From: a virus
Lineage: Duplodnaviria; Caudoviricetes
Virus record (IMG/VR): IMGVR_UViG_3300025120_014829
Span: 1-56,840 of that record
Length of the DNA: 56,840 nucleotides
Reading direction: 5' to 3' (one strand)
Positions 7,944-56,840 of this stretch are shown here, one piece after another; the stretch's first letter is position 1, and every line of letters starts with the position of its first letter. The position numbers and the translations under genes were made by a program. The notes under the pieces are model-generated. The model searched no databases, was not told where the DNA came from, and saw only the letters and a program-made list of their open reading frames with translations.

Positions 7944-7954
7944 TTTTATTTCTC

Positions 7955-9183: not shown

Positions 9184-9196
9184 TTATTTCTTCTAT

Positions 9197-10658: not shown

Positions 10659-10659
10659 T

Positions 10660-11496: not shown

Positions 11497-11535
11497 AATT
11501 CTTACCTCTTTTTATTATTATACTTGGTAAATAAT

Positions 11536-15964: not shown

Positions 15965-15977
15965 CTATTTAACCTCG

Positions 15978-20959: not shown

Positions 20960-20967
20960 TTCTTCCT

Positions 20968-21792
20968 CTAATCTTTAAAAAAGGAAACTCTTTCAATCCA
21001 CGGACCACCTTGGTGTGTGTTGTTTGAAAAAGTTAACGGTCTAAAACCTGTCATTGCTATCATTTTAAATAAGTCACCCTCATGGAATGAAAAAAGGTGC
21101 GCGCGCTCCACATGTGGCCCATCAGGCTCAACAGGTATTTCAAAATGGAAAAGTGTTCCTGCGTTTGTCGATTCATATAGCCTTTTTAAAAATTCAACTG
21201 GATTTGTCAAATGTTCAATAACATGGTAACAAACAATCAGGTTGAATTTTTTTAACACGTCAATCTTAAAATCTTCTGTCAAGTCCACTTTAAAGCAATT
21301 AAAACCTAACATATTTCCGGATGCGACATTGAAATCGTTGATGTCGCATCCGCCCTCTTCTAGACCTCTTTGCTTGTAGAAATTTTGGAGCCTAGGAACT
21401 CTAAATCCGATCTCAAAAAAGCTTTTAGGTATGTAGTTTTTAATCTGTGCTGTCTTTTTTTGCTCAAGTATAGTGTCTAACTCATCAATTCTTACATTGT
21501 CACTTTCAATTATATTGTTTAATAAAAATTCAATACGGTTGTATGCTGCTTCTGATGTCATATCTGGACTCAAACTCATACCTCTTGAGAGCTGAAGATT
21601 GTAATTAGCTTTTTTATTTTCTTCTGTCTGCAATAAACAACGTCTTTCACCCCAAGGTAGTTTTAGAACTGTGTGTTGGAAATTATTCCAGTTTCTTGTT
21701 GATTCAAAATTCTTATCATCTCCGGCAATCGATTTCAGATTATACACATAATCATTGTATAGTTTTTCAAAGCTTTCTTTATTATATTTCAT
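20968..21792 (-). CDS. SAM-dependent methyltransferase
   Basis: FEIG, CYHVIEHL.NP. Confidence 0.75.
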   Translation of the reverse strand: MKYNKESFEKLYNDYVYNLKSIAGDDKNFESTRNWNNFQHTVLKLPWGERRCLLQTEENKKANYNLQLSRGMSLSPDMTSEAAYNRIEFLLNNIIESDNVRIDELDTILEQKKTAQIKNYIPKSFFEIGFRVPRLQNFYKQRGLEEGGCDINDFNVASGNMLGFNCFKVDLTEDFKIDVLKKFNLIVCYHVIEHLTNPVEFLKRLYESTNAGTLFHFEIPVEPDGPHVERAHLFSFHEGDLFKMIAMTGFRPLTFSNNTHQGGPWIERVSFFKD

Positions 21793-23408
21793 ATTTTTTC
21801 AACCATTATTTTGTAATCATAAAAATACAGATAATCGATGTTCGTATTTAAAAAGCAGTTTATTGCATGCTCAGGAGTTTCACAGATAGGTTCTCTATCA
21901 TTAAAACTAGTGTTTAATATAATTGGTACTCCGGATTTCTCATCCCAGGACTTTAAAAAATTATAATACCAAGGGTTGTCTTTCTCAGTTACAGTTTGTA
22001 CTCTTGCAGTTCCATCTTTGTGAACAACCGCAGGTACTTTACTTTTAACTTCCTCTTTGAAGTTTAAAACAATATTCATGTAAGGACTGTCGTCGTCTCT
22101 AACAAACCATTCAGAAACTTTTTCTCTTAGCATTGACGGCGCAAAGGGACGATACCACTGCCTATGTTTAACTTTTTGATTAATTAGTTCTCGCATACTA
22201 TCTTGCCTGGGGTCTGCTAATATACTTCTATTACCTAGCGCTCTTCTTCCAGATTCTGAGCCTCCTCCAAAGATAGAAACTATTTTTTGTTGGTCGAGAA
22301 GATCTAGTAGTCTACTATCGCTAGCTTTAACAAAAGACACTCTTTTCTCTTTCTCGAGTACAGAAACTATTTCATCTTCTGCATATTGCCGGCCTAAGTA
22401 AGGTGTTTTATTATCTTCCCACTCAACTCTATCATGATCTAAAACGTTGTGCCACACATACTGAGCAGCACCGATTGAGAGGCCTCCGTCATGAGGCGCT
22501 GGTGGTATATAAACGTTTTCGATAAACGGGAACCATTCTTTAATTTTTCCTATCGCAACACAATTTAAAACAACACCTCCTGAAAGACATAGGTTTTTTG
22601 TCTCAATTTGACTAAAAAGCTGTTTCAATAACGAGTATATTATATTTTCTGTCGCTGCTTGCAAACTTGCTGCAAGATCAAATTTATCTTGCTCACTCCT
22701 GTCAGCTATCTCTCTATACTTTTGCAAGTATGGATGATCAGGATCAGTTCCTACATTTGCTCCTTTTGGTTGACCTGACGGTTTCATTGTTGCGATTTGA
22801 TTGTCGATGGTTAACATTTTCATAAAATCATCAAAATATTTCTTTCTGTCTCCAAAAGCTGCCATGGCCATTACTGAGCCTGCTTGATGGCCTCGTGGCC
22901 ATCCGCTTTGCAAATCAAATACGTACCTCGTTGTTCTGGTCCAAACGCCTCCAATATTCATATCATTTAATCTAAATGTATGAACATGATTGATTTTTTT
23001 GTTATCACCAAGGTATATTGTGCATGCAGTTACAAAATTGTCTCGCTCTACACCTCCCCCATCCATAGTAACAATTGTTGCTTTTTCTAAGTTGGATGAA
23101 TAAAATGCATTAGCAGCGTGAGACTCATGATGACCAACTACAAATATATTTCCATCATTTTTCTGAGCTTGCGCTTTCATGGCTTCAAACGATTCTTCAA
23201 ACCTAGTAGTTTTTGATAGTGGAAAACATGTTGCGAAGTGCTTAATGTCTTCATGACTACTGTAAGTTTCTTTCAAGAATTTATATGAATCACCTTGGGG
23301 TTCTTTTTCTCTCAAAAATCTTTCGTATTCGTTGTGTATTACGGGTACACCGTCTTTAAGCACACAGTAACTACAATCGTGTCCATTCCAAAAACCTGCT
23401 ATCTTCAT
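21789..23408 (-). CDS. O-carbamoyltransferase (NodU/CmcH/TobZ family)
   Basis: GHD, HHESHA, DGGG, GGVVLNC, ESGRRALGNRSILADP, RPFAPS, NTSFN; start at 23408 after GGAG. Confidence 0.92.
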   Translation of the reverse strand: MKIAGFWNGHDCSYCVLKDGVPVIHNEYERFLREKEPQGDSYKFLKETYSSHEDIKHFATCFPLSKTTRFEESFEAMKAQAQKNDGNIFVVGHHESHAANAFYSSNLEKATIVTMDGGGVERDNFVTACTIYLGDNKKINHVHTFRLNDMNIGGVWTRTTRYVFDLQSGWPRGHQAGSVMAMAAFGDRKKYFDDFMKMLTIDNQIATMKPSGQPKGANVGTDPDHPYLQKYREIADRSEQDKFDLAASLQAATENIIYSLLKQLFSQIETKNLCLSGGVVLNCVAIGKIKEWFPFIENVYIPPAPHDGGLSIGAAQYVWHNVLDHDRVEWEDNKTPYLGRQYAEDEIVSVLEKEKRVSFVKASDSRLLDLLDQQKIVSIFGGGSESGRRALGNRSILADPRQDSMRELINQKVKHRQWYRPFAPSMLREKVSEWFVRDDDSPYMNIVLNFKEEVKSKVPAVVHKDGTARVQTVTEKDNPWYYNFLKSWDEKSGVPIILNTSFNDREPICETPEHAINCFLNTNIDYLYFYDYKIMVEKI

Positions 23409-23431
23409 TAATATCTCCAAAAATTATTTAT

Positions 23432-23460
23432 ATTCTATAATTTATACTAAAAATGTACAA
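23432..23460 (-). promoter_or_regulatory. Sigma70-like promoter
   Basis: TTGTAC-N17-TAGAAT on the minus strand, in one of the few intergenic gaps of the glycan island. Confidence 0.55.
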
Positions 23461-23479
23461 AATAAAACGCAGATATTAA

Positions 23480-24538
23480 TTAAACCCACTCTAAACTAGA
23501 TTTATCGAGCCACTCTTTAACTTGATCTAGACCGTTTTCCAGTGTAACTTCTGGTTTCCAGCTAAAGTCTTTAGACACCTTCGTTATATCACTTATGTAA
23601 ATTTTTTGGTCACTTGGTCTAGGTTCATCAATGTTTATCACTTTCTTATTAGTCTTGAACATCTCATCGAGTAAATTTGATAACTCGACTAAAGAAGTAG
23701 TATTCTCAATACCACCACCTACATTGTAATAATTTCCTGAATATTTATCTATAGACTTCATTTGTTTTTCAATTAAAACAGATAAATCATCAACGTGAAG
23801 GTAGTCTCTTACCTGCTTTCCTTGATTCCCGTAATAGTAAAGTTGATGTTTTAATTTTTTAGCAATTGCAAACCAAACTATCCATCCTTGACTTACTTTT
23901 CCAAACTGGTGTGAACCATAAAGACAACTAAACCTATTAACAATAACAGGTATATTAAATGCTTTGGACCACTCTTGACAAATTAAATCTGCTGCATTTT
24001 TTGTTGCACCATAGACAGTGTGTGTATTGCCATTCATATCAGCTTTTTCACTAAAACCTTTATTAGACCACCCTAAATAGCTCTTGTTCTTTGCTTTTTC
24101 TTCATCCCAAGTCAGTCTAGTTTCAGTTTCAATCGTTGGTATTGAATTACAAAAATCGCCACTATAAGCTTTATTTGAACTCCAGAAAATAAGGCCGGCA
24201 TTTTTTCTTCTACAATATTCTAATACATTGTATGCGCCGACTGTATTGTTTGTGAAATCGTAACTAGGATTCCTGTATCCATCAATAGCAGTTGTCTGTG
24301 CTGAACATTCAAGAACAACATCAGGATTAAATTTATCAAAATTATAAAAGTCTTCAACACACCTAATATCACAATGTTTGAATTTGATGTTTTTATATTT
24401 TCTAAATCTAGAAAGGTTTAGTTCACTTCCGCGTCTAGATAAATTATCTATGCATAAAACTTCATGACCTTTACTAGCAAAACTAACTGCTAAGTTTCCA
24501 CCAACAAAGCCGGCGCCGCCTGTTATAAGTATGTTCAT
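23480..24538 (-). CDS. CDP-paratose 2-epimerase (RfbE/Tyv)-like epimerase
   Basis: TGGAGFVG, DNLSRRGS, SSNKAY, YGATK, QFGKVSQGW, GKQVRD. Confidence 0.8.
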   Translation of the reverse strand: MNILITGGAGFVGGNLAVSFASKGHEVLCIDNLSRRGSELNLSRFRKYKNIKFKHCDIRCVEDFYNFDKFNPDVVLECSAQTTAIDGYRNPSYDFTNNTVGAYNVLEYCRRKNAGLIFWSSNKAYSGDFCNSIPTIETETRLTWDEEKAKNKSYLGWSNKGFSEKADMNGNTHTVYGATKNAADLICQEWSKAFNIPVIVNRFSCLYGSHQFGKVSQGWIVWFAIAKKLKHQLYYYGNQGKQVRDYLHVDDLSVLIEKQMKSIDKYSGNYYNVGGGIENTTSLVELSNLLDEMFKTNKKVINIDEPRPSDQKIYISDITKVSKDFSWKPEVTLENGLDQVKEWLDKSSLEWV

Positions 24539-25467
24539 TTTAATAACTCCTCGAAGAATAGATCATATTTGCTTACTTGTTTTTCTATTAAAAAATTATT
24601 AACGTTACTTTTTAAATGTTCTTCATCTTCTTTTGTTGGATAGTAAACATTATAATTTGCTGGATCGAAAATACAATCAGCAGATAGGAATGTTTGTGCG
24701 ATACCTACATCTGTCGAAACGATCGGTGTGTTTGTCATACCACACTCAATAATTGATTGTGGACCTCCCTCTACTCTAGAACCGACAATATACATGTCGA
24801 GAGCTGAATACATCTTCACTACGTCTTCCATTGGAGGCAACTCATGATACGTGTAGGGTATTTTTAACTTTTCTAATTCATTAATGACATAATTTCTTCG
24901 CCACCCATTTAATAAGACATGCACATCTTTACCAGAGTCTCTAACTTTACTAACATAATCAATAAATATATCCGGACCTTTTTCAAGCTTTGGTGTCTTC
25001 AGATCGTGACCTTCTGTATCTCTCTGGAATGAACCCACAATAAATTTATCTAAAGGAATACCAAACTGTTTTTTGCACTCAATCTTGTTGTGAGGTTTAA
25101 ATAGTTTTTCATTGCACCAATACGTCAAAATTTTAACTGGTTTGCCAGTATGCTGTTCTATAAAATTCTTTGTTTTTTCGCAAGGCACATGATAAACATC
25201 AACAAACTTATCTCTTGCTAAAAAATTGCTCTTTCGTGCTTCGTCAAACTTCCAAGGTACTTCATGATGTATTGTACAGACTACTTTTCTATCTTTTAAA
25301 AATTGAGTGTCTATTTGGTTCCAACACCAAGAAGCGAGCAACCAGATAACTTGTGTTTCTGGGTACAGGTGTGTAAAACTTACATCGTGAGAAGAATATT
25401 TTTTAAATTCTTCTCCATACCTGTCACAGAACCAATTTTCTCTAGGTACATGGCAAAACACTTTCAT
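24535..25467 (-). CDS. Glycosyltransferase, GT4-like
   Basis: EKGPD, SRVEGGPQSIIE, STDVG. Confidence 0.85.
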   Translation of the reverse strand: MKVFCHVPRENWFCDRYGEEFKKYSSHDVSFTHLYPETQVIWLLASWCWNQIDTQFLKDRKVVCTIHHEVPWKFDEARKSNFLARDKFVDVYHVPCEKTKNFIEQHTGKPVKILTYWCNEKLFKPHNKIECKKQFGIPLDKFIVGSFQRDTEGHDLKTPKLEKGPDIFIDYVSKVRDSGKDVHVLLNGWRRNYVINELEKLKIPYTYHELPPMEDVVKMYSALDMYIVGSRVEGGPQSIIECGMTNTPIVSTDVGIAQTFLSADCIFDPANYNVYYPTKEDEEHLKSNVNNFLIEKQVSKYDLFFEELLK

Positions 25468-26381
25468 GATATATCCTGCATTATATTATAATATTTTTGT
25501 GCGCAATTTTTAATTTCTTTCTTTTTATCATAACGCTTAACTTTTACTGATTTAAGAAAGTCTATCTTTGGTGGTTTATATAGCGGTGTGGGTTTAAAGT
25601 CCCACTCATCTTCAACTATAACAGTACCATCAGAAACAACTTCACTTGTCCCTCCGGTAGAACTGCAAATTATGTGACAACCAGATGCTTGGGCATCGAC
25701 TACAACATTTGGACAATGATCTAGATAGGCAAGGTGAATAAATTTAGTACTTCGCTTATAAAGTGATAACAAACTCATATAATCCAAATCACCTAATACA
25801 TGAATCCTGTTATCTAAAGAAATTATTTCCTTTACTTCGTCCATACCTAGTCCGCCAGCTATAGCTAGCTGTGCATCTGGCGGAGCAAACTCTAAAAAAT
25901 ATGCAATATTATCATTTAATCGCTTATGCGGCCGCCAGCTAGAGGCACAACACCAAACTTCAGTCTCGCTGCCATCAAATTTATCATTCCAAAAATGTTT
26001 GTTTGCTGCTAATATCAATTTATCGTCTGCAGCATTATGAATCACATGAGAATTTTTGTGTTCTCCAAACCAAGCCTCAGTAAGTCTTTTGTTAAATTGG
26101 GATTGGAACACTACAGCGTCAGCATTTTGGTATGCAAAATGTATTGGTGCGTTCTGTTGTTTAAAATCCTGATCAGAATTAAACCATATACCATCTAAGC
26201 GAAGTAGCATAGGTTTTACCTTATGTACCTGTTGTTGGATTAGACAGAATTCAACGTCGGCATCTTCTTGTGCACTCAAGGAAACGTCTTTTTCTTTTAC
26301 TAAGTTTGAAAATAACGTTCTCGTAAATTTATTTGGGCCACTATTTGATTCTGGATTAAAGTTATGTGTAAAAATTTTCAT
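25464..26381 (-). CDS. Glycosyltransferase, GT4-like
   Basis: SGP, WRPHKR, DHCPNVVVDA. Confidence 0.85.
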   Translation of the reverse strand: MKIFTHNFNPESNSGPNKFTRTLFSNLVKEKDVSLSAQEDADVEFCLIQQQVHKVKPMLLRLDGIWFNSDQDFKQQNAPIHFAYQNADAVVFQSQFNKRLTEAWFGEHKNSHVIHNAADDKLILAANKHFWNDKFDGSETEVWCCASSWRPHKRLNDNIAYFLEFAPPDAQLAIAGGLGMDEVKEIISLDNRIHVLGDLDYMSLLSLYKRSTKFIHLAYLDHCPNVVVDAQASGCHIICSSTGGTSEVVSDGTVIVEDEWDFKPTPLYKPPKIDFLKSVKVKRYDKKKEIKNCAQKYYNIMQDIS

Positions 26382-34736: not shown

Positions 34737-34985
34737 ATGAAATGTTTTGAATATAACAACACATGTAAAAATAATTGTATGAAAACTGATTGTAGATATT
34801 GGATCAAAAAGGAATCATATCAAAATTGTTGCTTGATTGCTGCTGATAAAAATGGTTTAAATAGAGAAGAAAAATTTACACTTCAAGATATTGGTGACAT
34901 ATTTAGAGTTACGAGAATGAGAATTTGTCAAATTGAAAAAATTGCTGTTCGCAAACTCAAAGATAAGTTTTCTAACTTTGAATAA
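34737..34985 (+). CDS. Stand-alone sigma70 region-4 HTH protein with a Cys-rich N-terminus
   Basis: TLQDIGDIFRVTRMRICQIEKIAVRKL; C..C...C....C N-terminus. Confidence 0.8.
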   Translation: MKCFEYNNTCKNNCMKTDCRYWIKKESYQNCCLIAADKNGLNREEKFTLQDIGDIFRVTRMRICQIEKIAVRKLKDKFSNFE

Positions 34986-34988
34986 TAA

Positions 34989-35013
34989 AAAAGTCACACT
35001 AAGTGTGACTTTT
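34989..35013. terminator. Bidirectional intrinsic terminator
   Basis: AAAAGTCACAC-TAA-GTGTGACTTTT perfect inverted repeat between convergent genes. Confidence 0.8.
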
Positions 35014-35037
35014 AAAGTTTATGAAATATTAAAATTT

Positions 35038-35229
35038 CTATTCTTTACTAGTATCAAGGGAAGTCTTTACAATACTTGATGCAAGTTTTTTTGCTTCTCT
35101 CAAACCTTTTCTAGCTCTTACACCTGCTGATTTATTTCCTTGGGCATTTTTTACAACGTCCGTCTGCAGTGTTTCAATCAACACCTTCAATTCTTCATAC
35201 TGTGAAATTAAAGCTTCATTCAATGACAT
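35038..35229 (-). CDS. Histone H1-like (Hc1 family) nucleoid protein
   Basis: GNKSAGVRARKGL signature in a 63 aa helical hairpin; GGAGG RBS. Confidence 0.8.
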   Translation of the reverse strand: MSLNEALISQYEELKVLIETLQTDVVKNAQGNKSAGVRARKGLREAKKLASSIVKTSLDTSKE

Positions 35230-36191: not shown

Positions 36192-37436
36192 CTATTTGTT
36201 AATTATTAAAACTTCAAAACTTTCAAGCTTTTCAGTTAGACTTTTGATCTTTCCATTAGCAATATTAATATAGTCGCTTGGTATGTAAAATATTTGATCA
36301 TCTAATGATCTTACTAACACTTGATTTTTATTTGTATTTGCCAAGAATCTAAAAAAGTAATCTAATTCTCTTAATGACTTTTTATTACGTGTCATCATAT
36401 CTGGAAGATAAACGTTAACTCTTTCTGAAGTTAGATTTTTCAATCTTTGTTGTAGCGGTTCTATTTTAACATCACTTTTTAACTTTGCATCCTGTATTCG
36501 CTTTTTAATAAATTCTCTATGCAACTCTATCTCTACTTTTCCTATACATGGTTTTAGTATAATCTTGCCCGGTCTAAAACTTATACAATCACCTGTTTTT
36601 AATTTTTTCCTTACTTCTTGTGAGATAGTTTGACCCATAGCACTAGTAACAACATCAGCACCATGAATTACTGCGATATCATTTAGGACATTAAGTGTGT
36701 TTTCATCACTTGAATCTAGACACACTGGATACACTCTGAATTTGTTCATCGAATTGTTTTTAATGATTGTTTGTTTTACTTCTTCTGAGACACCAAAACA
36801 AAACAAAACGTATGGTTCTTTATTTATACTAGCCTCATACAACATGTGATGTATTTCACCTAACGATTCCACAATTCCATCTACAATTATATATTTGTAT
36901 TTTTTAAATGAGTGGTTTGCATTGTTTTTAAAAAAGTCATAATCAAAACTAAAACTAAACGAAAAATCATTGAAATATTCTACACAAATTTGTTCACCAT
37001 GATATTTTTCAATATTGATTGATCTTTTGAGGCTAGCATTATCAAAAAACCACTTAGCTAGATTACGTGTAGTTGGTAACCTCAAACTCTTAATAAAGCT
37101 TTTTTGCTTTTTCTTGCAATATTTGTAATCATTCCTAACTGGTATTTTTTCTTTAAATAATTTATGCAAGAAATATTCCCCTAAGTACGGATATATTTTT
37201 TCACATTCTTCAAATTCATTTATTATTAAGTTTTTTAAAGGTACTTGATAATCATTAGTTGGCATCACGTTTAAATAATTTAATGACAAATCAGATACAA
37301 TTGTTTCACTGTCATAAATGACACTATTTTTATCCACAAAACTTTTAAAAGTATCTGCTTCTTTTTCTAAAAATTGTTGTACTTGTGCATTACCAAAAAA
37401 AATATTATGAGTCACGCCAGAGGTTGTTGCTCGCAT
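36192..37436 (-). CDS. Divergent GroEL/Cpn60-like protein (start uncertain, possibly GTG at 37415)
   Basis: IIVDGIVESLGEIHHML...EPYVLFC.GVSEEV, LNDIAVIHGADVVT...G and LQQRLKNL parallel the GroEL apical/intermediate domains. Confidence 0.65.
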   Translation of the reverse strand: MRATTSGVTHNIFFGNAQVQQFLEKEADTFKSFVDKNSVIYDSETIVSDLSLNYLNVMPTNDYQVPLKNLIINEFEECEKIYPYLGEYFLHKLFKEKIPVRNDYKYCKKKQKSFIKSLRLPTTRNLAKWFFDNASLKRSINIEKYHGEQICVEYFNDFSFSFSFDYDFFKNNANHSFKKYKYIIVDGIVESLGEIHHMLYEASINKEPYVLFCFGVSEEVKQTIIKNNSMNKFRVYPVCLDSSDENTLNVLNDIAVIHGADVVTSAMGQTISQEVRKKLKTGDCISFRPGKIILKPCIGKVEIELHREFIKKRIQDAKLKSDVKIEPLQQRLKNLTSERVNVYLPDMMTRNKKSLRELDYFFRFLANTNKNQVLVRSLDDQIFYIPSDYINIANGKIKSLTEKLESFEVLIINK

Positions 37437-39339
37437 ATGTTAAAATCTCCTCTGCAGAACTTTCGTTATAACTGTATTCTTCAATTAATGTTCCGATCAT
37501 GTCTGTATATTTTTTCTTTTGATCATCGTCTCTTGATTTTGACCGGGTAACAATCCTAGCAATGTCTTTAACAGAAGTTATTAAATACTTTTCAATTGCT
37601 TCTTTTAAAGGACCGTACGATTTATAATCAACAGTCTCACCTTTTCTCATCTTTGAGAACATATATGCAGTAACATCATTTCTGAAACCATCCCTTGCAG
37701 AACCAGTCACGCTTATCATTTCTTCAATGATTCTCATAAATTTTTCATCAGGATCTCTTTCTTCCCGCGTAATCTTATCTTTTACGCGCGTCTTGGTTGT
37801 GTAACATTCAGCATTATCTAAATAAGAATCAAATAATGATTGTGCTTGTTCTTCATAAGCTGTGATAAATGCTTTTGCAATTTCTGTTTCTAGAATTCTA
37901 AGATATTCTTCACGAATGATCTTTTGGAGTATTTCAAGATATCTAGTTTTTGCTTCTTCGTCGATAACTTGCTCTTTAACTTGTTTAATTAAAGAATCAA
38001 CTACATTAATAGGAGTAATCATTCCATTATCTGAGTCTGAAAGAGCGGCATCTAAAGATTTCATAATAAAACGTGTAGAAATACCTTCCATCCCCTCATG
38101 CTTTGCTTCATCTTTAAGATCACGAATATCAACCTTTTTAACTCTACCTTTTTCAATAATAGCTTCACCGTTATAGATTTTCAACTTTGTCAATAAATCA
38201 CACTTATTTGAGGGTTGGAGTCGCGACATAATTGAAAACATTGATGCTACTTTTAATGTGTGCGGTGCAATATGGGCATTTCTAAAGTCTGATCTTTTTA
38301 TCATTTTTTGATAAATTTTCATTTCTTGGTCTAATTCTAAAACATACGGTACATTTATTTTAACTACTCTATCTAAAATTGCTTCGTTAGTGTGCTCTGA
38401 TTTAAATCTATTCCATTCACTTTCATTACAGTGCGCAAGAATTACACCGTCAAAGAAAACCATATCATGTCTACCAGGAGCCGGTACACGTTTTTCTTGG
38501 GTTGCTGTCAGCATCGTATGTAAGAATTCAATTTCATTTTTAAACACTTCAACAAATTCGACAATACCCCTGTTACCCACATTAAACGCACCGTTTAGGG
38601 AGAGGACTCGTGGGTCATCTTCAGGATATAAATCTAGTTTACTAATGTCTTCAGTTCCAATTAACACAGAAGTATCCTGGGAGTTTGCGTCCATTGGTGG
38701 TACTACAGCAATTCCCCTTCTACCTCTTTGGGAAAATGTCGATTCAACTACTTTAAAGTTTTCGTATTTACCTTCATACTCATTTAATAATTTCCATCTA
38801 GCAATAGGGCTTAGATCGCCTTCTATTGTTACGCCTAGTATATCTTCCATATCGCTACGAAGAGATCTAGGTATTAATTGCAGGGGTTCACCGCGTTGAG
38901 GATCTCCATCTAGATGAAAATATCTTTGTCCATCAAGCGCGCTTTTTATGTGTTCTGTCAATGCAGATTTACCAGCGCCTACTGGTCCCATTAAAAGAAG
39001 CACTTGTCTACTTTCTTCACCTTTATGAGCGGCTGACTTTAAAAATCTCATTAGTTTATTAATCACAGACTCCATACCAAAAAATTCTTTTTTAAAGTAT
39101 TCGTAAGTTCTTATTTTATCACCATTAAAAATATCTCTATAAGTGTCTGAATCAATATCAACTGTATCGACACCATGATCACAAATTGTTTCATACAATC
39201 TTTTATGAGCTAGCTTTATTTTACCTGGGTCATCTCTAATCAATTCTAAGTACTCTATAAATGTACCTTTAAATTTTTCTTTCTTTTTTTTATTTCTTTG
39301 GTTTTGTATGAGTTTCAACAATTCGTTTTTACGTGTCAT
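37405..39339 (-). CDS. prkA: PrkA/YeaG family AAA+ ATPase/serine kinase
   Basis: LLMGPVGAGKS, NRGIVEFVEVFK, HCNESEW, EGMEGISTRF; 644 aa. Confidence 0.93.
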   Translation of the reverse strand: MTRKNELLKLIQNQRNKKKKEKFKGTFIEYLELIRDDPGKIKLAHKRLYETICDHGVDTVDIDSDTYRDIFNGDKIRTYEYFKKEFFGMESVINKLMRFLKSAAHKGEESRQVLLLMGPVGAGKSALTEHIKSALDGQRYFHLDGDPQRGEPLQLIPRSLRSDMEDILGVTIEGDLSPIARWKLLNEYEGKYENFKVVESTFSQRGRRGIAVVPPMDANSQDTSVLIGTEDISKLDLYPEDDPRVLSLNGAFNVGNRGIVEFVEVFKNEIEFLHTMLTATQEKRVPAPGRHDMVFFDGVILAHCNESEWNRFKSEHTNEAILDRVVKINVPYVLELDQEMKIYQKMIKRSDFRNAHIAPHTLKVASMFSIMSRLQPSNKCDLLTKLKIYNGEAIIEKGRVKKVDIRDLKDEAKHEGMEGISTRFIMKSLDAALSDSDNGMITPINVVDSLIKQVKEQVIDEEAKTRYLEILQKIIREEYLRILETEIAKAFITAYEEQAQSLFDSYLDNAECYTTKTRVKDKITREERDPDEKFMRIIEEMISVTGSARDGFRNDVTAYMFSKMRKGETVDYKSYGPLKEAIEKYLITSVKDIARIVTRSKSRDDDQKKKYTDMIGTLIEEYSYNESSAEEILTYASNNLWRDS

Positions 39340-39392
39340 AAATTATATCTCCTGTTTCATATATTAATTAATACGTTCTCAGCGTAAAATAC

Positions 39393-40721
39393 TTAAATTT
39401 CCCAAACTTCTTCTTCTATAATTGTAAAAAGTTTAACTTCTTTGTCCCACATTTCCCTTACGTGATCCATCACTTTGTCTGCATAGTCTAAGTCTAAGTC
39501 GCGACCATCATGTTCATGTTTCAATACAAGCGACCCATCACTGTCAACCCTGTCTACATAAATATGAGGTATCATGTTAATCCCGGTGTTTCTAATCATT
39601 TCTTCTCTAACAACTTTCCAATCATCGTGATCAGTAACTTCAGAAACCACAGCTGATCCATCTTTTTTATTTTCGTATGCAAAAAAGTTTAATTCTCTAA
39701 AATCTTCTTCATCAAGTAACATTCTTAAGGCTGCTACGTCATCATGATTATCTCTCACTTCAAAACATTTTTCTAAACCATGCTCTCTTTCCATTTTTTG
39801 AAAGATATAAAAACCTACGTGATATGGGTTAACACCACCTAGGTGAGGCCTCACTACTGCATTGTGCATTTTTAGAAAAGGTAAGTGCATTGAATCTGGT
39901 AACTCTAAGTCATGAAGTATTTTGTAGTGCCAGAAAGATGCCCACCCCTCATTTAATATCTTTGTTTGTATTTGAGGCATAAAATACCAACTATCTTGTT
40001 TTACAATTTCAAGTAAATCAAGCTGCCAATTGGTAAACTTGTCTGGATAATATTCTGTGAAAAAAGACAAGAGGTCATGATCGGGTTTTAAGAGTCTTCT
40101 TGTTTCTAAACCTTCAAAGTCTAACACAAGACCTTTTTCTTTGTATGCATTATATCTTTTAATTTCTCTTTCTTTTATTTCACACCTAGTTTCTCTAGGT
40201 ATGCCGTAACGATCAGTCTGGTATTTTATTGCGTGTAGATTATCTAAAAAAGATTCAACTTTATCTTGACCTATGGAAGGGTTTTCAATATAACTTTGTA
40301 TTCTTTTTTTAGCATTTCTCATCCTTGAGACAACATGATCTGGGTCTGTATTTTTAAAACACCTGTTGTTTTTAAAGAAATCACTATGCCCGACACAATG
40401 TGCCATGATTAATATTTGCAGATACAGTGGATTCTGAAGCATTAAATATGCAATTGATGGGTTTGAATTAATAATCATCTCATAAGGCAACCCACTTTGA
40501 CCCATGTTGTAGTTGAGGTGTGTTCTTTCAAAAGTCTTACCATAACTCCAGTGATTATAGTGGCTTGGCATGCCATGATACGACATATGACCTATCATTT
40601 CGTAATAATCACAAATTTCATAAGTTATTTCAAACCAATCTAATCCGTAATTACGAGCTATTTCACATATTTTATCATCCCAAACGCTTAAATCTTTTGG
40701 TGAATATTCAGATAAGCTCAT
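39393..40721 (-). CDS. spoVR: SpoVR/YcgB family protein
   Basis: HWSYGK, YEMIINSNP.IAYL, AHCVGHSDFFKNN, QTKILNEGWASFWH, NPYHVG; start at 40721 after GGAGG. Confidence 0.93.
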   Translation of the reverse strand: MSLSEYSPKDLSVWDDKICEIARNYGLDWFEITYEICDYYEMIGHMSYHGMPSHYNHWSYGKTFERTHLNYNMGQSGLPYEMIINSNPSIAYLMLQNPLYLQILIMAHCVGHSDFFKNNRCFKNTDPDHVVSRMRNAKKRIQSYIENPSIGQDKVESFLDNLHAIKYQTDRYGIPRETRCEIKEREIKRYNAYKEKGLVLDFEGLETRRLLKPDHDLLSFFTEYYPDKFTNWQLDLLEIVKQDSWYFMPQIQTKILNEGWASFWHYKILHDLELPDSMHLPFLKMHNAVVRPHLGGVNPYHVGFYIFQKMEREHGLEKCFEVRDNHDDVAALRMLLDEEDFRELNFFAYENKKDGSAVVSEVTDHDDWKVVREEMIRNTGINMIPHIYVDRVDSDGSLVLKHEHDGRDLDLDYADKVMDHVREMWDKEVKLFTIIEEEVWEI

Positions 40722-41883
40722 ATTTTCCTCCAAATAACTTTGAAAATTGTGGCCATATATCTTTTTTGTCTCTAATGTTGATCACCTTAAATTTATCACT
40801 TATTAAAGGTTCAAATATTTTTGCCATTTCTTCTCCCCAAATTTTTTCCTGTGATCTCTTTATTTGAATATACCCGGCTAGTTGACTTATATTTACTAAG
40901 TTTCTCATCTTTTCTAAAGCTTTAGGGTTGTCTTCAGACCAATTTTCACCATCAGAACAATGAAATGTATAAATATTCCAACTTGATGGTGAATATCTTT
41001 CCTGCATTATCTGTTCAGCTTTTTCTAGTCCTGATGATATATAAGTCCCACCGGATGATGCTTTTTTAAAAAAGTCATCTTCGTTTGTTTCTTTCGCTTC
41101 AGTTGTGTGTGAAATAAATACCAAATCAATATTCTGGTATTTGAATCTGATAAATTGATATAGTAAGAAAAAGAACGATCGTGCAAGAAATTTCTTTCTT
41201 TTTGTCATGGAACCAGAAACATCCATTATCATAAAAATGACTGCATTAGTCACAGGTTTTTTAGTGACCTCAATATGTTTGTATTTAAGATCATCTTCAT
41301 GAAAAGGAAACCTATCTTCACTTTCTGGGTCAAACGTTCCATTATTAATGGCGCTGTTTCTTCTTCTAATCTTATTTTTTAAAGTTTCTTTCTTTGACAG
41401 TCTTGCATTAATACCTTTAGGTCTATATCCTTTGCGTTTGATCCGATCAGATGTCACAGTGTTATTCTGTTTCTTCTTAAGTTCAGGAAGGTTTAAATCA
41501 TCAAATAAGTACTTTGCTAGTTCATCTAATGAAACCTCGACATCGTAGTAGTCCTCTCCAGCACTATTGCCCGGCTTTTCTGGTTTACCGGCGCCTTTAC
41601 CTTTCTGTTTAGGTTTGCGAACTACTTGTCCTTTTTTAATATCTTGCCCTTGAGCTGATCCTACACCCTTAGTGCCACTACCTACACCATAAATAAATTG
41701 ATATTCTTTAATACCTCTGACGGGTATCTTTATTTTCTTTTTACCGTCTTGACCAATTATGCTTTCTTCAGCTACAATATCATGTATACCTTCTTTGATG
41801 GCTTTATCAATCTTTTCTTTGTGCCTTCTTCTATCTGAAGCAGATCTGTCTGCAACTGTCTTATGATTCTTAAATACTGACAT
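40708..41883 (-). CDS. yeaH: YeaH/YhbH (DUF444) vWA-domain protein
   Basis: DRRRH, MDVSGSM (MIDAS), FISHTTEA, SGGTYISS, HCSDGENW. Confidence 0.92.
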   Translation of the reverse strand: MSVFKNHKTVADRSASDRRRHKEKIDKAIKEGIHDIVAEESIIGQDGKKKIKIPVRGIKEYQFIYGVGSGTKGVGSAQGQDIKKGQVVRKPKQKGKGAGKPEKPGNSAGEDYYDVEVSLDELAKYLFDDLNLPELKKKQNNTVTSDRIKRKGYRPKGINARLSKKETLKNKIRRRNSAINNGTFDPESEDRFPFHEDDLKYKHIEVTKKPVTNAVIFMIMDVSGSMTKRKKFLARSFFFLLYQFIRFKYQNIDLVFISHTTEAKETNEDDFFKKASSGGTYISSGLEKAEQIMQERYSPSSWNIYTFHCSDGENWSEDNPKALEKMRNLVNISQLAGYIQIKRSQEKIWGEEMAKIFEPLISDKFKVINIRDKKDIWPQFSKLFGGKYELI

Positions 41884-52402: not shown

Positions 52403-53491
52403 TTACCTGTCTAAAAACAGAGAATACGACCCATCATAGTACTTTATAATAATACTAGCATTCTCAGCAGCATTAATTAAATGATGAGAGTGGTAAATAT
52501 AAGACTCATATGTTTGTTCATCAATTTTTTGCTTATATTCCTCAACAAAATCATTATAACTTTGCATCATTTCTACAAAAAATCGAATATTAACATTAAC
52601 AATCTTATCAATCCCTTCAGTATTATTGTAGATTTCTTTGGCAACCTGGTCAGGCGTTAATGATTTAATCATTTTAAAAAACACATTAAAACGATCGATT
52701 CCATCTTTTGTTGCAAATCCTCGACGAAAGTACTCAAATATTTCAGCAATTGTGGTACCACTCGAAGCGCGCTGTTCATAACTTAATTCTGATGGTGATA
52801 AACTATCTCCGGAAAAACCAAGCAGTGGTAGTAATATGTCTTTTAAAGTGTCATCAAATTCACTTTTTAGTTCATTCTCAGTGCGATTAATAAATGAAAA
52901 GACTTTGCTAAATCCAGCAGGTGTAAAGTGTTTTATATTAATACCCTTTGAATATCCTGAGTGCAAAAAGATTGTTTTAAAAAATAAATGAATAGGACTA
53001 ATTCCGTGAGCATTAGAAGTAACAAGAAAATCATCATACTTTTCACCCATCTCAATTAAATCATCCCGCGAGTCTGTTAAATAAAAAGAATTGTCATGCG
53101 CAATCTTGAAAAACACAGCAATAAAATTTACTTCTGATGTCAAATTACCTAACTTTGTCAAGTTTTCTCTACCAGAAGGTGTCATTAACTTACCAATCGA
53201 CGAAGCCCCTCTTGTATCACCACCGTGCATAGAGTACTTACTAGTAAAAAACTCTAGCCTGGATGGCAACTCTAGAGTAGAATCTGTTTTTTTAAAACCA
53301 GATCTTTGCTTAGATCTATATATCCCGTCAGGTAAAGCACGATACAGCGACAGCACACTCTGTATCATTAATCCCACAGCATGACTAGTCATCGTAGATT
53401 CTTTAAATTCGTCAGGAGCAGACTGCAAAGCTAGCGTGTGCATTAACGATTCTTGTATTAACTTTCTTAATATTTTCTTTGTTACTTTCAT
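52403..53491 (-). CDS. Hypothetical protein with leader motif
   Basis: MKVTKKILRKLIQESL N-terminus; 362 aa. Confidence 0.75.
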   Translation of the reverse strand: MKVTKKILRKLIQESLMHTLALQSAPDEFKESTMTSHAVGLMIQSVLSLYRALPDGIYRSKQRSGFKKTDSTLELPSRLEFFTSKYSMHGGDTRGASSIGKLMTPSGRENLTKLGNLTSEVNFIAVFFKIAHDNSFYLTDSRDDLIEMGEKYDDFLVTSNAHGISPIHLFFKTIFLHSGYSKGINIKHFTPAGFSKVFSFINRTENELKSEFDDTLKDILLPLLGFSGDSLSPSELSYEQRASSGTTIAEIFEYFRRGFATKDGIDRFNVFFKMIKSLTPDQVAKEIYNNTEGIDKIVNVNIRFFVEMMQSYNDFVEEYKQKIDEQTYESYIYHSHHLINAAENASIIIKYYDGSYSLFLDR

Positions 53492-53524
53492 TAAGTTCTC
53501 TTTCTTTTGTATATTATGCAGGTA

Positions 53525-54073
53525 CTAATACCGGCCTATAGCACGTATCTCTTGAATAATAATTTTTCTTATTTGATTACGTGTTAATTTCTCTTCAATC
53601 CCAGCACGTGTCCTATTGCTAGGGTTGGCATTAAAATACCTATCCATATGTATATCGTCTAAATCAATGATTCGACCTAGGTCATCTCCAGCATCTCTCA
53701 CAGCTTTATCCATCGCTAGTTCTTGTGCCTGAGACTCAATACCACCAAAACCATATATTCTACCTAGCGCATCTTTGCTTTCTTCCGGATCTTGTGGGAG
53801 ATTGCTTAAAATATCTTCTGCTCGACCTCCTAATTTCTCCATATCACCAACTTCTTGATACGCGATGTAATTATCCACGTAATTAGGCGCACCGTACGAG
53901 TCTAGAAAGCTTCTAGCTTGATTTATATCCTCTGGTGTTCCTCGATCAATCATTGCATTAATTTTTTCTGCATGAGATGCAGGAATATGTGCAGGTAACG
54001 AGGGTTTGATTCTATGCTCGAAAAACATAGCTTCACTGATTAATTTTCTTATTTGATTCCGGGTAGTTTTCAT
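53525..54073 (-). CDS. Hypothetical protein with leader motif at both ends; paralogue of 55067-55828
   Basis: MKTTRNQIRKLISEA and EKLTRNQIRKIIIQEI; shared RIKPS...VGD.EKLG domain. Confidence 0.8.
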   Translation of the reverse strand: MKTTRNQIRKLISEAMFFEHRIKPSLPAHIPASHAEKINAMIDRGTPEDINQARSFLDSYGAPNYVDNYIAYQEVGDMEKLGGRAEDILSNLPQDPEESKDALGRIYGFGGIESQAQELAMDKAVRDAGDDLGRIIDLDDIHMDRYFNANPSNRTRAGIEEKLTRNQIRKIIIQEIRAIGRY

Positions 54074-54106
54074 TATAATTCCTTTTGTTCTTAAATAATT
54101 ATGTAA

Positions 54107-54481
54107 CTACAATCCAAATAACTCATTCCGCTCATCGCTATACAGAACACGCATATGCACACTAGCATTAAGTGCCGCAGCCTTGGCCAGTCGATGATTC
54201 CCGTCGAGCACTACAACAGGGCGCTTGGTCACACGATCCACTTCAACAATGATCGGCGTCAATATATTTGCGCGCTGCACTCGATGTGTCTCGATACCTG
54301 TTATCTCGCGTGCTAGCATCTTCTTAAGTTTACACGCATTCATTGTGATCACCGGCCGTGCACGACTGTCTAAGAAACCGGTCACATCCCCTAAACTAAC
54401 AACTCGATCTCCCATATCCCAAGTCGTATTAAGGCCTGACTCACGTATTAATCGTCTTAGTTGCCGGCGAGTAATTCTCAT
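54107..54481 (-). CDS. ParB/Srx-like domain protein with leader motif
   Basis: PIIV...VLDGNHRLAKA; MRITRRQLRRLIRE. Confidence 0.75.
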   Translation of the reverse strand: MRITRRQLRRLIRESGLNTTWDMGDRVVSLGDVTGFLDSRARPVITMNACKLKKMLAREITGIETHRVQRANILTPIIVEVDRVTKRPVVVLDGNHRLAKAAALNASVHMRVLYSDERNELFGL

Positions 54482-54494
54482 TCTTTCCTCTTTT

Positions 54495-55067
54495 TTAATT
54501 AATTAACTCGTCAAGTAAGTCATTATTAGGATTGTAATACGCACCGTCTTCCCAGTCAAACTCGTACGCTCCGGTATAGTAATACTCATTTACATCGTCC
54601 ATGTTATTCAGAAGCCATCTTTCAGCTTCAGAGACAACCTTGTCGAATAGAGCTAGCAACTCTGAACTACTTAGGCTGGGGCTACCCGCCTTTTTGGCTC
54701 TCACAGCATTTTTGACTTTTTGAAAAAGTCTTTTACTCACCGGGGCTTCAACACGTCGAAATTTGGAACCATCTTTGTTGACGTATGCCACACTAAGCGT
54801 GGGTCGGCTAGACAAGCGTTCATACCCACCTCTCATCTTTACAACAGCTGGGGCATCCATTTGATCTGAGATGTCAATTAAATTTGCCGCGGACTTGAAA
54901 TACTCATCGCTGTCTCCTGACATTGTTGACACTTTCTCCCTGTATTCCGGATTATCTGATACGATCATTGACTGCGGAATGTGCCTATCTTCACCGCTTG
55001 GAAATGTGTTCGGGTCATACATGGCTTCGCTAATTAATCGTCTTAATTGTTTTCTTGTGATAATCAT
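54495..55067 (-). CDS. Hypothetical protein with leader motif
   Basis: MIITRKQLRRLISEAM; GAGG RBS. Confidence 0.75.
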   Translation of the reverse strand: MIITRKQLRRLISEAMYDPNTFPSGEDRHIPQSMIVSDNPEYREKVSTMSGDSDEYFKSAANLIDISDQMDAPAVVKMRGGYERLSSRPTLSVAYVNKDGSKFRRVEAPVSKRLFQKVKNAVRAKKAGSPSLSSSELLALFDKVVSEAERWLLNNMDDVNEYYYTGAYEFDWEDGAYYNPNNDLLDELIN

Positions 55068-55828
55068 TATGACCTCTGTATATATAGTCGTCTTGGATCT
55101 CTATGTATCTGCAACATCTTGATCGCTGTTTCTATCTTAGTGTAGATTCCATATCGGAACTGAGAACGATCACGATTAAAATCACGTAAGTCATCAGCCA
55201 TGACAATGTGAGTATAAGACTTATTAATAAATGAATACAACGCATCAATCAAGTCTTCAACTTCAACACCAATAGCAACTTCACCACCAGGTAACTCAGG
55301 TGCACGCAAGTAATACTGATCTGTCATTTCGATCTCGAGAATGCGACGCACTGCCATTTCTTGTAATAGTTTATGCTCCAAAAACATGTCCGGGTCGCGA
55401 TGCTGAGGTATAGCATTTAGATGCTCTTTGTTTCTATTTTTTGCATATCTAGTATAGTAAGAGTCATAAAACGAGTCTAGTCGATCCTCTTGTTTCTCGA
55501 AGTCTTTCATGAAATCGCGTGCTATGGCCCTTGCTCGATCGTCCACTGATTGCACATCGCCATAACGATAACCGGGATCACTAAGAATTTCAGCTGCTTC
55601 ATTTCCTAGCTTCTCTAAGTCACCAACTTTTTCGTACGTCATATAGCTATCAACATAGTCTGGGTCTCCGTCAAATGCATCTATTAGTGACTGCGCCTGC
55701 GCTAGGCGACCACCATCAATGAGACTATGTATCTTATTTAAATGCTCCGGCGGGATATTAGTAACAGAAGGCTTGATTCTCACTTCTTGTAAAATAATTT
55801 GTCGTAATTGTCTTCGTGTCACTTTCAT
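55067..55828 (-). CDS. Hypothetical protein with leader motif; paralogue of 53525-54073
   Basis: Start at MKVTRRQLRQIILQE (55828) after GGAG. Confidence 0.78.
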   Translation of the reverse strand: MKVTRRQLRQIILQEVRIKPSVTNIPPEHLNKIHSLIDGGRLAQAQSLIDAFDGDPDYVDSYMTYEKVGDLEKLGNEAAEILSDPGYRYGDVQSVDDRARAIARDFMKDFEKQEDRLDSFYDSYYTRYAKNRNKEHLNAIPQHRDPDMFLEHKLLQEMAVRRILEIEMTDQYYLRAPELPGGEVAIGVEVEDLIDALYSFINKSYTHIVMADDLRDFNRDRSQFRYGIYTKIETAIKMLQIHRDPRRLYIQRS

Positions 55829-55947
55829 TATGACTCCATGATATGATGTATATAAATAACTATCAAAGATCAACTTATTTGTCTCCGGTAAAATTTCAAT
55901 AAAAACCCCCGGTCCTCACCGGCGCGAGCTAGCCCTACCCTATGAAC

Positions 55948-55979
55948 GCCGAGTAAGACCCCGCAGGGTCCTCCTCAGC
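55948..55979 (-). other. GC-rich hairpin just downstream of the viperin operon
   Basis: GCTGAG-G-AGGACCC-TGCG-GGGTCTT-A-CTCGGC on the minus strand. Confidence 0.55.
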
Positions 55980-55986
55980 TCACACT

Positions 55987-56337
55987 CTACTTTTTCTTTC
56001 CGATACCGGTCAAATGCCACACATCATAGTACTCTGGACACTCATATACCTCTACAGCTTCACACCTAGCTTTATCATTTATCTTTGCACACACAGCTTC
56101 TATCTTATCCCGATCTAAGTAAGCACGCTTCAAACGACCTAGATGATCTCGACAACTACACACCTTATAATGCTCATCATTCGACTTCGTCCGCAAGTGC
56201 CAGTAATCACAACGTGCACATCGATAAGGCACTAACTTACGATGCTTCCGCTTACACTTCTTAGCATATCGTCGAGCCTCTGTCTTACTATGAAACACCA
56301 TCATCGGTCGACCGGTGCCTAAATGAACACAATTCAT
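55987..56337 (-). CDS. Small protein with two tandem Cys/His (Zn-finger-like) repeats
   Basis: YRCARCDYWHL and YECPEYYDVWHL, each preceded by a Cys and a K/F..xxA helix; start overlaps the viperin stop (ATGA), GGAGG RBS. Confidence 0.7.
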   Translation of the reverse strand: MNCVHLGTGRPMMVFHSKTEARRYAKKCKRKHRKLVPYRCARCDYWHLRTKSNDEHYKVCSCRDHLGRLKRAYLDRDKIEAVCAKINDKARCEAVEVYECPEYYDVWHLTGIGKKK

Positions 56338-56840
56338 TTTGACACCTCCCAAGACCAAACTCCACCGCGATCCTCAAATACATCATCGTTGAACATCGAC
56401 TCGATCTCCGACCAAGCCCGATCCATGCCTACCTCAGGAATCGGGGCACTGCGCTTGAATTCCCCTCCCACATTATTATAAAACCTCAACTTACCGTCGA
56501 GCATGCAATAACTACCAGTCATTAACTCATTCGACTCAACAACAGGCTCTAAGTGCTCATGCCGAGCAACCCAAGCCCGAAATTCCTCACTCGTGATCTC
56601 TAACTCATCCCATACATCATCATTCTCGCCTTTGATCGGTAAGGCCTGGAAAACTTTCCAGCGATGTGGCCTTAACTGCGCGACTAAGTCAGACATGTCG
56701 TCAGCCTTATTATAGTTACACACAACTGTGTTCAGCTTCAACTGATAACCGAGATCTTGTGCAGCTTGCCAGCTTACCAGCGACCGCTCGAGATGCTTAC
56801 TGTATCCCGCCTTGAGCTCGCCTGCGCGTCCTCGGCCGAT
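56334..56840 (-). CDS. Viperin (RSAD2/pVip) radical SAM homologue, C-terminal part; runs off the right edge
   Basis: Frame open to the edge: IGRG...H, KLNTVV, RWKVFQAL.I.GEND, EEF...V.RH, ESNELMTGSYCMLD..LRF, F..RGG. Confidence 0.85.
   Translation of the reverse strand: MGRGRAGELKAGYSKHLERSLVSWQAAQDLGYQLKLNTVVCNYNKADDMSDLVAQLRPHRWKVFQALPIKGENDDVWDELEITSEEFRAWVARHEHLEPVVESNELMTGSYCMLDGKLRFYNNVGGEFKRSAPIPEVGMDRAWSEIESMFNDDVFEDRGGVWSWEVSK

Follow-up and report, generated by a model that had tools for sequence, protein, structure and literature searches.

Gene content at the end of the contig

The window analysed here, 56,840 b long, is an entire linear IMG/VR record with a CheckV completeness of 20%, and the features referred to below are as follows.

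56334..56840, minus strand: 3' part of a viperin gene (pVip-type radical SAM ddh-nucleotide synthase), the last 168 codons and TGA
56343..56350, minus strand: Shine-Dalgarno GGGAGGTG of the zinc-type gene, inside the last viperin codons, read from the sequence
55987..56337, minus strand: gene of a small Cys/His-rich (zinc-type) protein with two repeats, 116 aa long, whose ATG overlaps the viperin stop (ATGA)
55899..55922, minus strand: terminator-like hairpin CCGGTGAGGACCGG (55909-55922) followed by GGGTTTTTAT, 65 nt past the zinc-type gene
53525..55828, minus strand: four consecutive tagged genes of the array around the viperin unit, with N-termini of the form M(K/R/I)(I/T/V)TR(R/N/K)Q(L/I)R(R/K/Q)(L/I)I..E
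3013-29679: sugar island of ~27 kb, with NeuB, a DAHP/KDO8P-synthase family gene, heptose genes, many glycosyltransferases and a carbamoyltransferase

The minus-strand frame at 56334-56840 is open up to the final base of the window, contains no frameshift or stop, and encodes a 168-residue fragment whose C-terminus is RGGVWSWEVSK. A first-pass annotation, made from the sequence alone, had proposed a viperin homologue on the basis of the motifs IGRG, KLNTVV, RWKVFQ, GEND and ESN..M..SY..LD..RF. All of these were found in the fragment, and the complete set of viperin-specific C-terminal motifs (KLNTV, RWKVFQ, ESN..SY..LD..RF, the beta-8 loop and RGG.W.W) is present and aligns to mouse viperin. 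The fragment matched the NCBIfam model NF038283 ('viperin family antiviral radical SAM protein') with an E value of 1.4e-36 over profile positions 132-280 of 281; the score of 126.1 bits is that expected for 149 of the 281 profile positions. It also matched three PADLOC pVip models (E 6.5e-35 to 1.5e-30) and the eukaryote-type viperin model TIGR04278 (E 1.5e-23), while the next-best radical SAM families, TIGR04053 and MoaA, reached E values of 0.002-0.007 only and Pfam gave no match to this C-terminal half. Homology already covers residue 1 of the fragment, which means that translation does not begin at the TTG at 56741 and that the gene runs off the end of the contig, as the first-pass remark about a frame open beyond this TTG had implied. 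The 5' ~126 codons, which include CxxxCxxC and the catalytic N-terminal half, lie beyond the contig end.

Full-length relatives

Three further IMG/VR records carry the same gene, with 82-84% protein identity, and the closest DNA relatives of the window end are two metagenome contigs (L119 and L120) with 94% nt identity and a 294-aa protein. In these relatives (G001, G002/G003 and L119/L120) the viperin ORF is complete, 293-294 aa long, and contains CNYRCKFC and GGEPM, so that the upstream CxxxCxxC, which had been suggested as a check on the annotation, is found in DNA 94% identical to that of the window. The equivalog cut-off of NF038283 is 180 bits and applies to the score of the whole protein. 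L120 scored 253.4, G001 254.3 and G002/G003 243.6 bits, and the full-length viral proteins were above the cut-off in 9 of 9 cases (243-299 bits). The motifs CxxxCxxC, GGEP, RWK.F and RGG.W.W are invariant in the relatives (CxxxCxxC and GGE in alignments of 19 and 16 rows). When compared with solved structures, the G001 protein aligned to mouse viperin over residues 9-291 with an E value of 7e-43, and to nine viperin or viperin-like chains with E values of 3e-35 or below, against 3e-8 for MoaA. The scores above the cut-off, the motifs and the matches to solved structures place the protein in the viperin family on every sequence criterion. The first-pass annotation had allowed that the full protein might group with non-viperin radical SAM families; the full proteins exceed the equivalog cut-off instead.

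The gene belongs to a T4-like phage lineage

No capsid gene and no terminase gene were found in the window with Pfam and PHROGs, and many of its ORFs were left without a family. In addition to the sugar island, which includes three CTP-consuming genes of the cytidylyltransferase type, it encodes a 1091-aa DUF2345/VgrG-like protein, a PIN-PhoH protein, a PrkA-SpoVR-DUF444 triad and UvdE. BLASTN showed the window to be collinear with G002 over the window's length, and also with G001. G002 (61 kb) is 99.99% identical across 34 kb to G003, which comes from a different sample, and it carries a gp25-like baseplate wedge gene just past the left end of the window. Alignment of the window PrkA and two orthologues yielded 20 IMG/VR loci, including four large relatives (G004, G005, G006 and G007) whose PrkA is 72-84% identical to that of the window; the record G004 (236,652 b, 77% complete) is collinear with window positions 836-46688 at 70-76% nt identity.

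Five records, G002 and the large relatives G004-G007, were searched for morphogenetic genes. All four large relatives encode a major capsid protein of the gp23 type (E about 1e-66), Terminase_6N (gp17-type) and Peptidase_S77 (gp21-type prohead protease), and the 61-kb record G002 gave no match to any of the three. G004 also encodes a sigma-70 factor (Sigma70_r2, E 5.7e-23); in the controls this model was matched in 10 bacterial genomes and in 0/4 archaeal ones. Phage_lysozyme was detected in none of the five records searched, and PF00940 (T7-type RNA polymerase) had no match in the relatives, nor in its control. The gp23-, gp17- and gp21-type genes and the sigma-70 factor in collinear relatives indicate that the lineage is that of a marine, uncultured T4-like myophage of a bacterium, with a genome of ~300 kb, and the KDO/heptose-type genes fit a Gram-negative host.

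The first-pass annotation had raised the question of whether the gene is linked to phage DNA or sits on a misassembled host fragment. The same gene order recurs in independent contigs and in viral-metagenome runs: three other IMG/VR records are collinear with the window, the gene is present at 47 metagenome loci, and among the public runs listed as holding the stretch, 17 of 24 are labelled viral metagenome. When two viromes were compared, contigs covered the viperin part in both. As far as sequence data go, a misassembled host fragment is excluded. One RNA run (X21) contained four contig pieces, all on 53471-55457 with 90-95% likeness and none on the viperin. Among GenBank phages the VgrG-like protein had no match, and the matches to PrkA were distant only (30-35%).

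Occurrence and selection

In 50,697 GenBank phage records we found no viperin, only six weak radical SAM matches with less than 28% identity. A two-pattern scan of IMG/VR gave 77 candidate stretches, 15 of which were confirmed; they represent 14 loci, three from the lineage of the window, nine full-length at 31-39% identity elsewhere, and two partial. Five of these nine other full-length loci were examined; 5/5 pass the viperin cut-off (243-299 bits), and each lies next to a terminase, a major head protein or genes of phage replication. True phage viperins therefore recur in several lineages. Metagenome contigs contributed 69 confirmed viperin loci, of which 47 belong to the viral clade of the window (at least 50% identity). 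The large relatives and one further record (G004-G008) contained no viperin above the cut-off, the unrelated radical SAM ORFs in G005 and G008 scoring 56-61 bits. G004, the closest large relative of the window, reaches the syntenic place and lacks the viperin there; the gene is therefore dispensable and counts as accessory.

Pairwise dN/dS for 12 full-length viral-clade viperin genes had a median of 0.094 (range 0.047-0.20) in the 18 of 66 pairs that were usable, the others being saturated or too close. For the fragment in the window the values were 0.048-0.10 against four relatives, with a fifth pair saturated. The viperin is thus under strong purifying selection.

In the searchable literature, so far as the accessible portions of it extend, phage viperins are undescribed except for one sentence in one preprint, which places annotated pVips near viral glycosyltransferase/5mYOX DNA-hypermodification neighbourhoods. 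Two papers on viperin evolution held no passage on virus-encoded copies.

Relationship to the viperins of Poseidoniales

The nearest named proteins are 'viperin family' entries of Candidatus Poseidoniia and Thermoplasmatota MAGs (43-47% identity). Among GTDB species genomes the best loci (41-48%) are nearly all from Poseidoniales, including SAGs and contigs of up to 378 kb, and bacterial viperins come next with 35-43% identity. A maximum-likelihood tree of 117 rows (quick search, LG+G4, SH-aLRT support only) was built with two partial IMG/VR loci of less than 230 aa (L032 and L033) excluded. In it, the sequences from viruses and metagenomes group as a clade of 19 rows (support 97), which lies within a 35-row clade with Poseidoniales (SH-aLRT 99). 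These comparisons support kinship between the viral and the Poseidoniales viperins. We also considered the viral clade as nested inside Poseidoniales. A tree holding the 25 archaeal-side rows together was not rejected by the AU test (delta lnL 0.68, p 0.48), so that nesting, and hence a direction of transfer, is not supported and none is claimed. The Poseidoniales viperins, the closest cellular sequences, have no zinc-type or tagged genes nearby, unlike the phage locus.

A small zinc-type protein is coupled to the viperin

As judged by the ATGA overlap, the viperin is translationally coupled to a small zinc-type protein of restricted distribution. This protein consists of two repeats of one small unit. 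Residues C40, C43, W46, H47, C62, K70, Y73, Y97, C99, W108 and H109 are invariant, C3 and C60 nearly so, and the median dN/dS of the gene is 0.25. The family comprises 12 clusters only in 5.8 billion proteins, all of them at least 48% identical. The Pfam family RYYR-CCHC (PF23674) touches 4 of 16 of the small proteins (E 0.003-0.26), and membership was rejected, the best score of 17.8 bits being below the gathering threshold of 27. The AlphaFold model (pLDDT 79.7) predicts two strand-helix-hairpin repeats. Foldseek assigned no fold to it (best match E 0.15, I-DmoI), and the best VIA-align hit (Z 4.6, to RNA polymerase subunit L/alpha-like rows) is within the noise of the tool. A predicted complex of viperin and zinc-type protein scored 0.00 against a mark of 0.32, a value that says nothing either way.

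Small ORFs downstream of viperins were scanned for the core motif C-x(1,2)-C-x(0,2)-[YW]-H-L. Such an ORF is present at 31 of the 39 viral-clade loci with enough downstream sequence and at 0/99 other viperin loci. Among the eight misses, L121 and L123 carry a homologue in which one Cys is substituted, a tblastn match exists at L146, and L144 and L145 have different genes downstream of the viperin. The protein occurs as single units of 53-58 aa, in a ~95-aa form and as doubles of 116-141 aa, and at L145 and L139 the ~95-aa form lies upstream of the viperin. G004 carries the ~95-aa form behind the same leader (see below) with no viperin, and a contig from one virome links 55976 with 56334, exactly skipping or replacing the zinc-type gene. 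When scanning with the VgrG-like protein and the ~95-aa form, only G004 and one distant locus were retrieved. Taken together, the 31 of 39 loci, the misses, the form in G004 and the skipping contig indicate a pairing that is strong and not obligatory, and the viperin looks like an insertion into a pre-existing unit of leader and zinc-type protein. The coupling to a double Zn-finger-like gene proposed at first is upheld as regards the overlap and the two-repeat Cys/His protein, although the partner is not exclusive to viperins, as G004 demonstrates.

The same annotation had contrasted this partner with the nucleotide kinase often found with pVips. The window contains no kinase gene. According to one preprint, a kinase lies within three genes of only 12% of bacterial and 5% of archaeal viperins, which makes its absence the rule rather than an exception. 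A deep member of the viral clade, L155, does have a thymidylate-kinase-family gene (PF02223, E 4.6e-18) between the viperin and the small ORF.

Tagged genes, leader and terminator

The tag that marks the four genes next to the viperin unit was found in 61 ORFs at 28 of the 47 viral-clade metagenome loci and in none at 113 other viperin loci. Both in the window genes and in these 61 ORFs, a Glu follows hydrophobic residues at about position 14. The internal proteins of T4 carry a capsid-targeting sequence of ~10 residues that is cut by gp21 after (L/I)-x-E, and by analogy the tag may send the proteins into the capsid for injection. A gene for a gp21-type protease is present in G004-G007. The viperin and the zinc-type protein themselves have no tag.

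In the relatives, a sigma-70-type promoter-like sequence (TTGTAA-17-TATAAT) lies upstream of the unit and is kept in the alignment. It is followed by a leader of ~350 nt, outside the window, with 70-95% identity; blocks of the leader are 87-92% identical even where the viperin is only 60% identical, and in G004 the leader precedes the zinc-type gene. RNAalifold applied to 13 distinct leaders predicted 76 pairs, 8 of them with compensatory changes, located mainly in one hairpin (columns 243-276) and its neighbour. A predicted long-range helix covers the Shine-Dalgarno, and most of its pairs never vary. Rfam gave no match to the leader; in the window and the related loci it detected only a tRNA, in G003.

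The terminator-like hairpin behind the zinc-type gene is preceded by a CTCGCGC motif, and a hairpin of the same type closes the upstream cassette in G004. Terminator-like sites are no more numerous in the region than expected by chance.

Base pocket and predicted product

The enzyme is predicted to be a radical SAM dehydratase that would turn ribonucleoside triphosphates into 3'-deoxy-3',4'-didehydro (ddh) nucleotides. All core motifs of vertebrate RSAD2 (mouse 5VSL, 6Q2P) align with the phage enzyme, which differs in having no N-terminal membrane helix, in an identity of about 35% or less, and in the base pocket. In the HMMER alignment, RFLNCTGGRK of the mouse protein stands opposite RFYNNVGGEF of the phage protein, so that the positions of mouse Cys314 and Lys319 are occupied by Asn and Phe. 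According to the Shomar preprint, Cys314 and Lys319 are the pair conferring base selectivity, and an Asn-type pocket, which is found in most prokaryotic viperins, is tied to several ddh-nucleotides. Given this replacement, the phage viperin is probably not limited to CTP. One preprint reports that ddh-nucleotides terminate RNA chains and that T7 plaques were reduced in E. coli expressing viperins from all domains.

Possible role of the phage viperin

At this locus a bona fide viperin has a new owner, a T4-like phage, and both its constant neighbour and its leader are new as well. Prokaryotic viperins (pVips) were reportedly described by Bernheim et al. in 2021. By the curated HMM cut-off the phage protein belongs to the same enzyme family, and its full-length relatives have the CxxxCxxC, GGE and C-terminal motifs in common with pVips. 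Like most pVips, it is also a single-gene system that stands without a kinase. The pVips, however, are cellular and belong to the genome of a bacterium or archaeon, where they typically sit within a defence island, whereas the viperin described here lies among tagged genes in a large T4-like phage genome, is probably co-transcribed with a zinc-type protein and has, in the relatives, a ~350-nt leader.

We consider that an intact, functional phage viperin serving competition between viruses, or superinfection exclusion, by means of ddh-nucleotides is the best reading of these sequence data, with a probability of roughly 0.5. The viperin would be carried by a lytic-type marine T4-like myophage of ~300 kb that infects a bacterium, and would be transcribed together with the zinc-type protein, the unit in the relatives being driven by the sigma-70-type promoter and preceded by the leader. 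The sigma-70 factor of a relative suggests that this phage depends on the multisubunit RNA polymerase of the host, which it would redirect by means of a sigma factor of its own. Bacterial RNA polymerase may be less sensitive to ddh-nucleotides than the polymerases that competing phages bring along, and E. coli expressing pVips is reported to grow normally. Through its use of the host polymerase, the phage could therefore flood the cell with chain terminators that hurt competitors with a polymerase of their own: co- or superinfecting phages whose polymerases accept ddh-nucleotides would be harmed, and the T4-like phage could tolerate these nucleotides if the bacterial polymerase discriminates against them.

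As an extension of this competition model, the leader, the viperin and the zinc-type protein could form a regulated, early 'immune' operon in which the leader gates translation, as the predicted helix over the Shine-Dalgarno suggests, and the zinc-type protein partners the viperin, either as its reductant or regulator or by shielding phage transcription from ddh-nucleotides. The order of the genes and their overlap are observed; that the three parts would act in concert in this manner is tentative and, in our judgement, rather unlikely.

A precedent for defence genes carried by viruses is offered by the P2/P4 hotspots, where defence systems reside on phages and satellites (PMC9122126). There too, a variable hotspot of a viral genome houses an antiviral gene, presumably against competitors; those elements are temperate and protect the lysogen, whereas here the genome is T4-like and the effector would be a synthase of nucleotide analogues.

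An unlikely alternative is that the ddh-nucleotide feeds a biosynthetic pathway of the phage, be it a modified nucleotide, nucleic acid or nucleotide-sugar chemistry. Both the ~27-kb sugar island with its three CTP-consuming cytidylyltransferase-type genes and the preprint sentence on glycosyltransferase/5mYOX neighbourhoods are compatible with such a role. The viperin is, however, located ~27 kb away from the island, amid small tagged genes and not tailoring enzymes; the island varies independently of it, and its sole constant neighbour is the small zinc-type protein.

It also seems improbable that the enzyme is directed at the host, with ddh-nucleotides or a drain on NTPs acting early in infection to disable a process such as nucleotide-signalling defence, primase or the synthesis of stable RNA. 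In T4-like phages, anti-host factors reside in hypervariable regions of the kind in which this viperin is found, that is, an array of genes with a tag resembling that of T4 internal proteins, and the sigma-70-type promoter upstream in the relatives agrees with this role. Nevertheless, we know of no viperin that acts on its host in a takeover or counter-defence manner, and since the host polymerase is shared with the phage, targeting it would poison the phage too.

Poseidoniales (Marine Group II) archaea are very unlikely to be the hosts of the virus, with the viperin as a gene captured from them. The origin of the nearest cellular viperins, at 41-48% identity and nearly all from Poseidoniales MAGs or SAGs, and the common 35-row clade (SH-aLRT 99) speak for this explanation, against which stand the sigma-70 factor of the collinear relative, the gp23/gp21 T4-type morphogenetic module of the lineage, the KDO/heptose LPS-type genes of the window, and an AU test that shows no nesting inside the archaeal group (p 0.48). 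Finally, it is highly improbable that the gene is an artefact, be it cellular DNA wrongly joined to that of a phage or a passenger in decay. Its position at the very end of the contig, and the breaks near it in several related contigs, would fit such an origin, but the junctions from tagged genes through viperin and zinc-type gene to tagged genes recur in four IMG/VR records of three genotypes and in dozens of metagenome contigs from many samples, with a dN/dS of about 0.09 and neither frameshift nor stop.

Viperins have so far been studied as host immunity, from bacteria to humans. At least five other IMG/VR phage lineages have true viperins, which makes the virus-borne enzyme a recurrent phenomenon, and the present lineage, an abundant marine one with a well-conserved copy, ties viperins from a virus of bacteria to those found in Marine Group II archaea. 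It also brings out two uncharacterised parts, the small zinc-type protein and the conserved leader, and would offer a concrete system in which to study how a virus escapes the poisoning of its own transcription. Should the operon arrangement be correct, the phage would own a nucleotide-analogue weapon complete with parts for control and self-protection, shared across domains with Marine Group II archaea. If the viperin does serve competition, viruses too would deploy chain-terminating nucleotides, presumably against each other.

Promoter, leader and neighbouring genes of viperin

Viperin is preceded by a promoter (TTGTAA-17-TATAAT) followed by a conserved leader of about 350 nt, and where viperin is absent the same promoter and leader stand upstream of the zinc-type gene, which encodes a small Cys/His two-repeat protein. 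Both rows lie outside the window:
1382-1759 of locus L002 (G001, collinear with the window and carrying full-length viperin): promoter and leader, found likewise in 12 other loci
1052-1292 of locus L215 (G004, a larger T4-like relative): promoter and leader

Four to five compensatory pairs were found in one hairpin of the leader, and its Shine-Dalgarno sequence is predicted to be covered by a helix. The leader had no match in Rfam.

The genes on either side of viperin vary:
Window 55976-56334, and metagenome contigs L115, L118, L121, L123, L126, L138-L140, L149, L152 and L155: swapped gene 3' of viperin
9017-9613 of locus L004 (G002/G003, two further collinear records with viperin), and several metagenome loci: 198-aa ORF, immediately 5' of viperin in some genotypes

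The position after viperin is occupied by different variants (53-aa, about 95-aa and 116-141-aa forms), with the viperin stop as the exact point where contigs diverge; in one virome contig, 55976 is joined to 56334. The 198-aa ORF gave no family match, and it is missing in G001.

Viperins and other radical SAM genes on phage contigs

True viperins (243-299 bits) were found in five other IMG/VR phage contigs (L023, L024, L028, L030 and L031), which represent at least three unrelated clades and in which viperin adjoins replication genes, terminase or a head protein. Relatives carry a second radical SAM ORF, which scored 56-61 bits against the viperin model, under its cut-off of 180 bits:
G002 22545-22904; G005 102315-102713; G008 22930-23451: non-viperin radical SAM ORF, about 356-363 aa

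In G002 this ORF sits at the place of the sugar island.

Sugar island and stress-kinase triad

Window 3013-29679 (-): sugar-nucleotide and glycosyltransferase island, about 27 kb
Window 37405-41883 (-): PrkA-SpoVR-DUF444 (yeaG/yeaH/ycgB-type) stress-kinase triad
Window 34737-35229: gene pair, 82-aa protein (+) and 63-aa protein (-)

The island encodes NeuB, a KDO8P-synthase family member, heptose genes, three cytidylyltransferases, a carbamoyltransferase and methyltransferases. Across 7947-25567 of it G002 differs from the window, and G004 has about 2 kb in place of that stretch. At the protein level the triads of G000 and G002 are 96% identical, and 20 IMG/VR contigs of the lineage have this triad. 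Within the gene pair, the 82-aa protein has a Sigma70 region 4 helix-turn-helix and adjoins the 63-aa protein, a basic Hc1 histone-H1-like protein.

Repeat array and tagged gene family

Locus L013 (G003) 7673-8455, outside the window: tRNA-Leu(TAA), then repeat array
Window 53525-55828 (-): multigene family with a common N-terminal tag, M(K/R)(I/L)TRRQLRRLI..E

Ten copies of TCTCGCGC (at most one mismatch), all on the same strand, come after the tRNA and fall inside 640 nt of GC-rich sequence without a clear coding frame. None of 200 shuffles reached the locus-wide count, and the array looks like an iteron or promoter array.

The tagged family also occurs in G001, G002/G003 and G004; among 47 related metagenome loci, 28 have it. 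Relatives encode a Peptidase_S77. The tag resembles the T4 capsid-targeting sequence with its gp21-type cleavage site; by this analogy, the members of the family may be internal proteins that are injected and have diversified.
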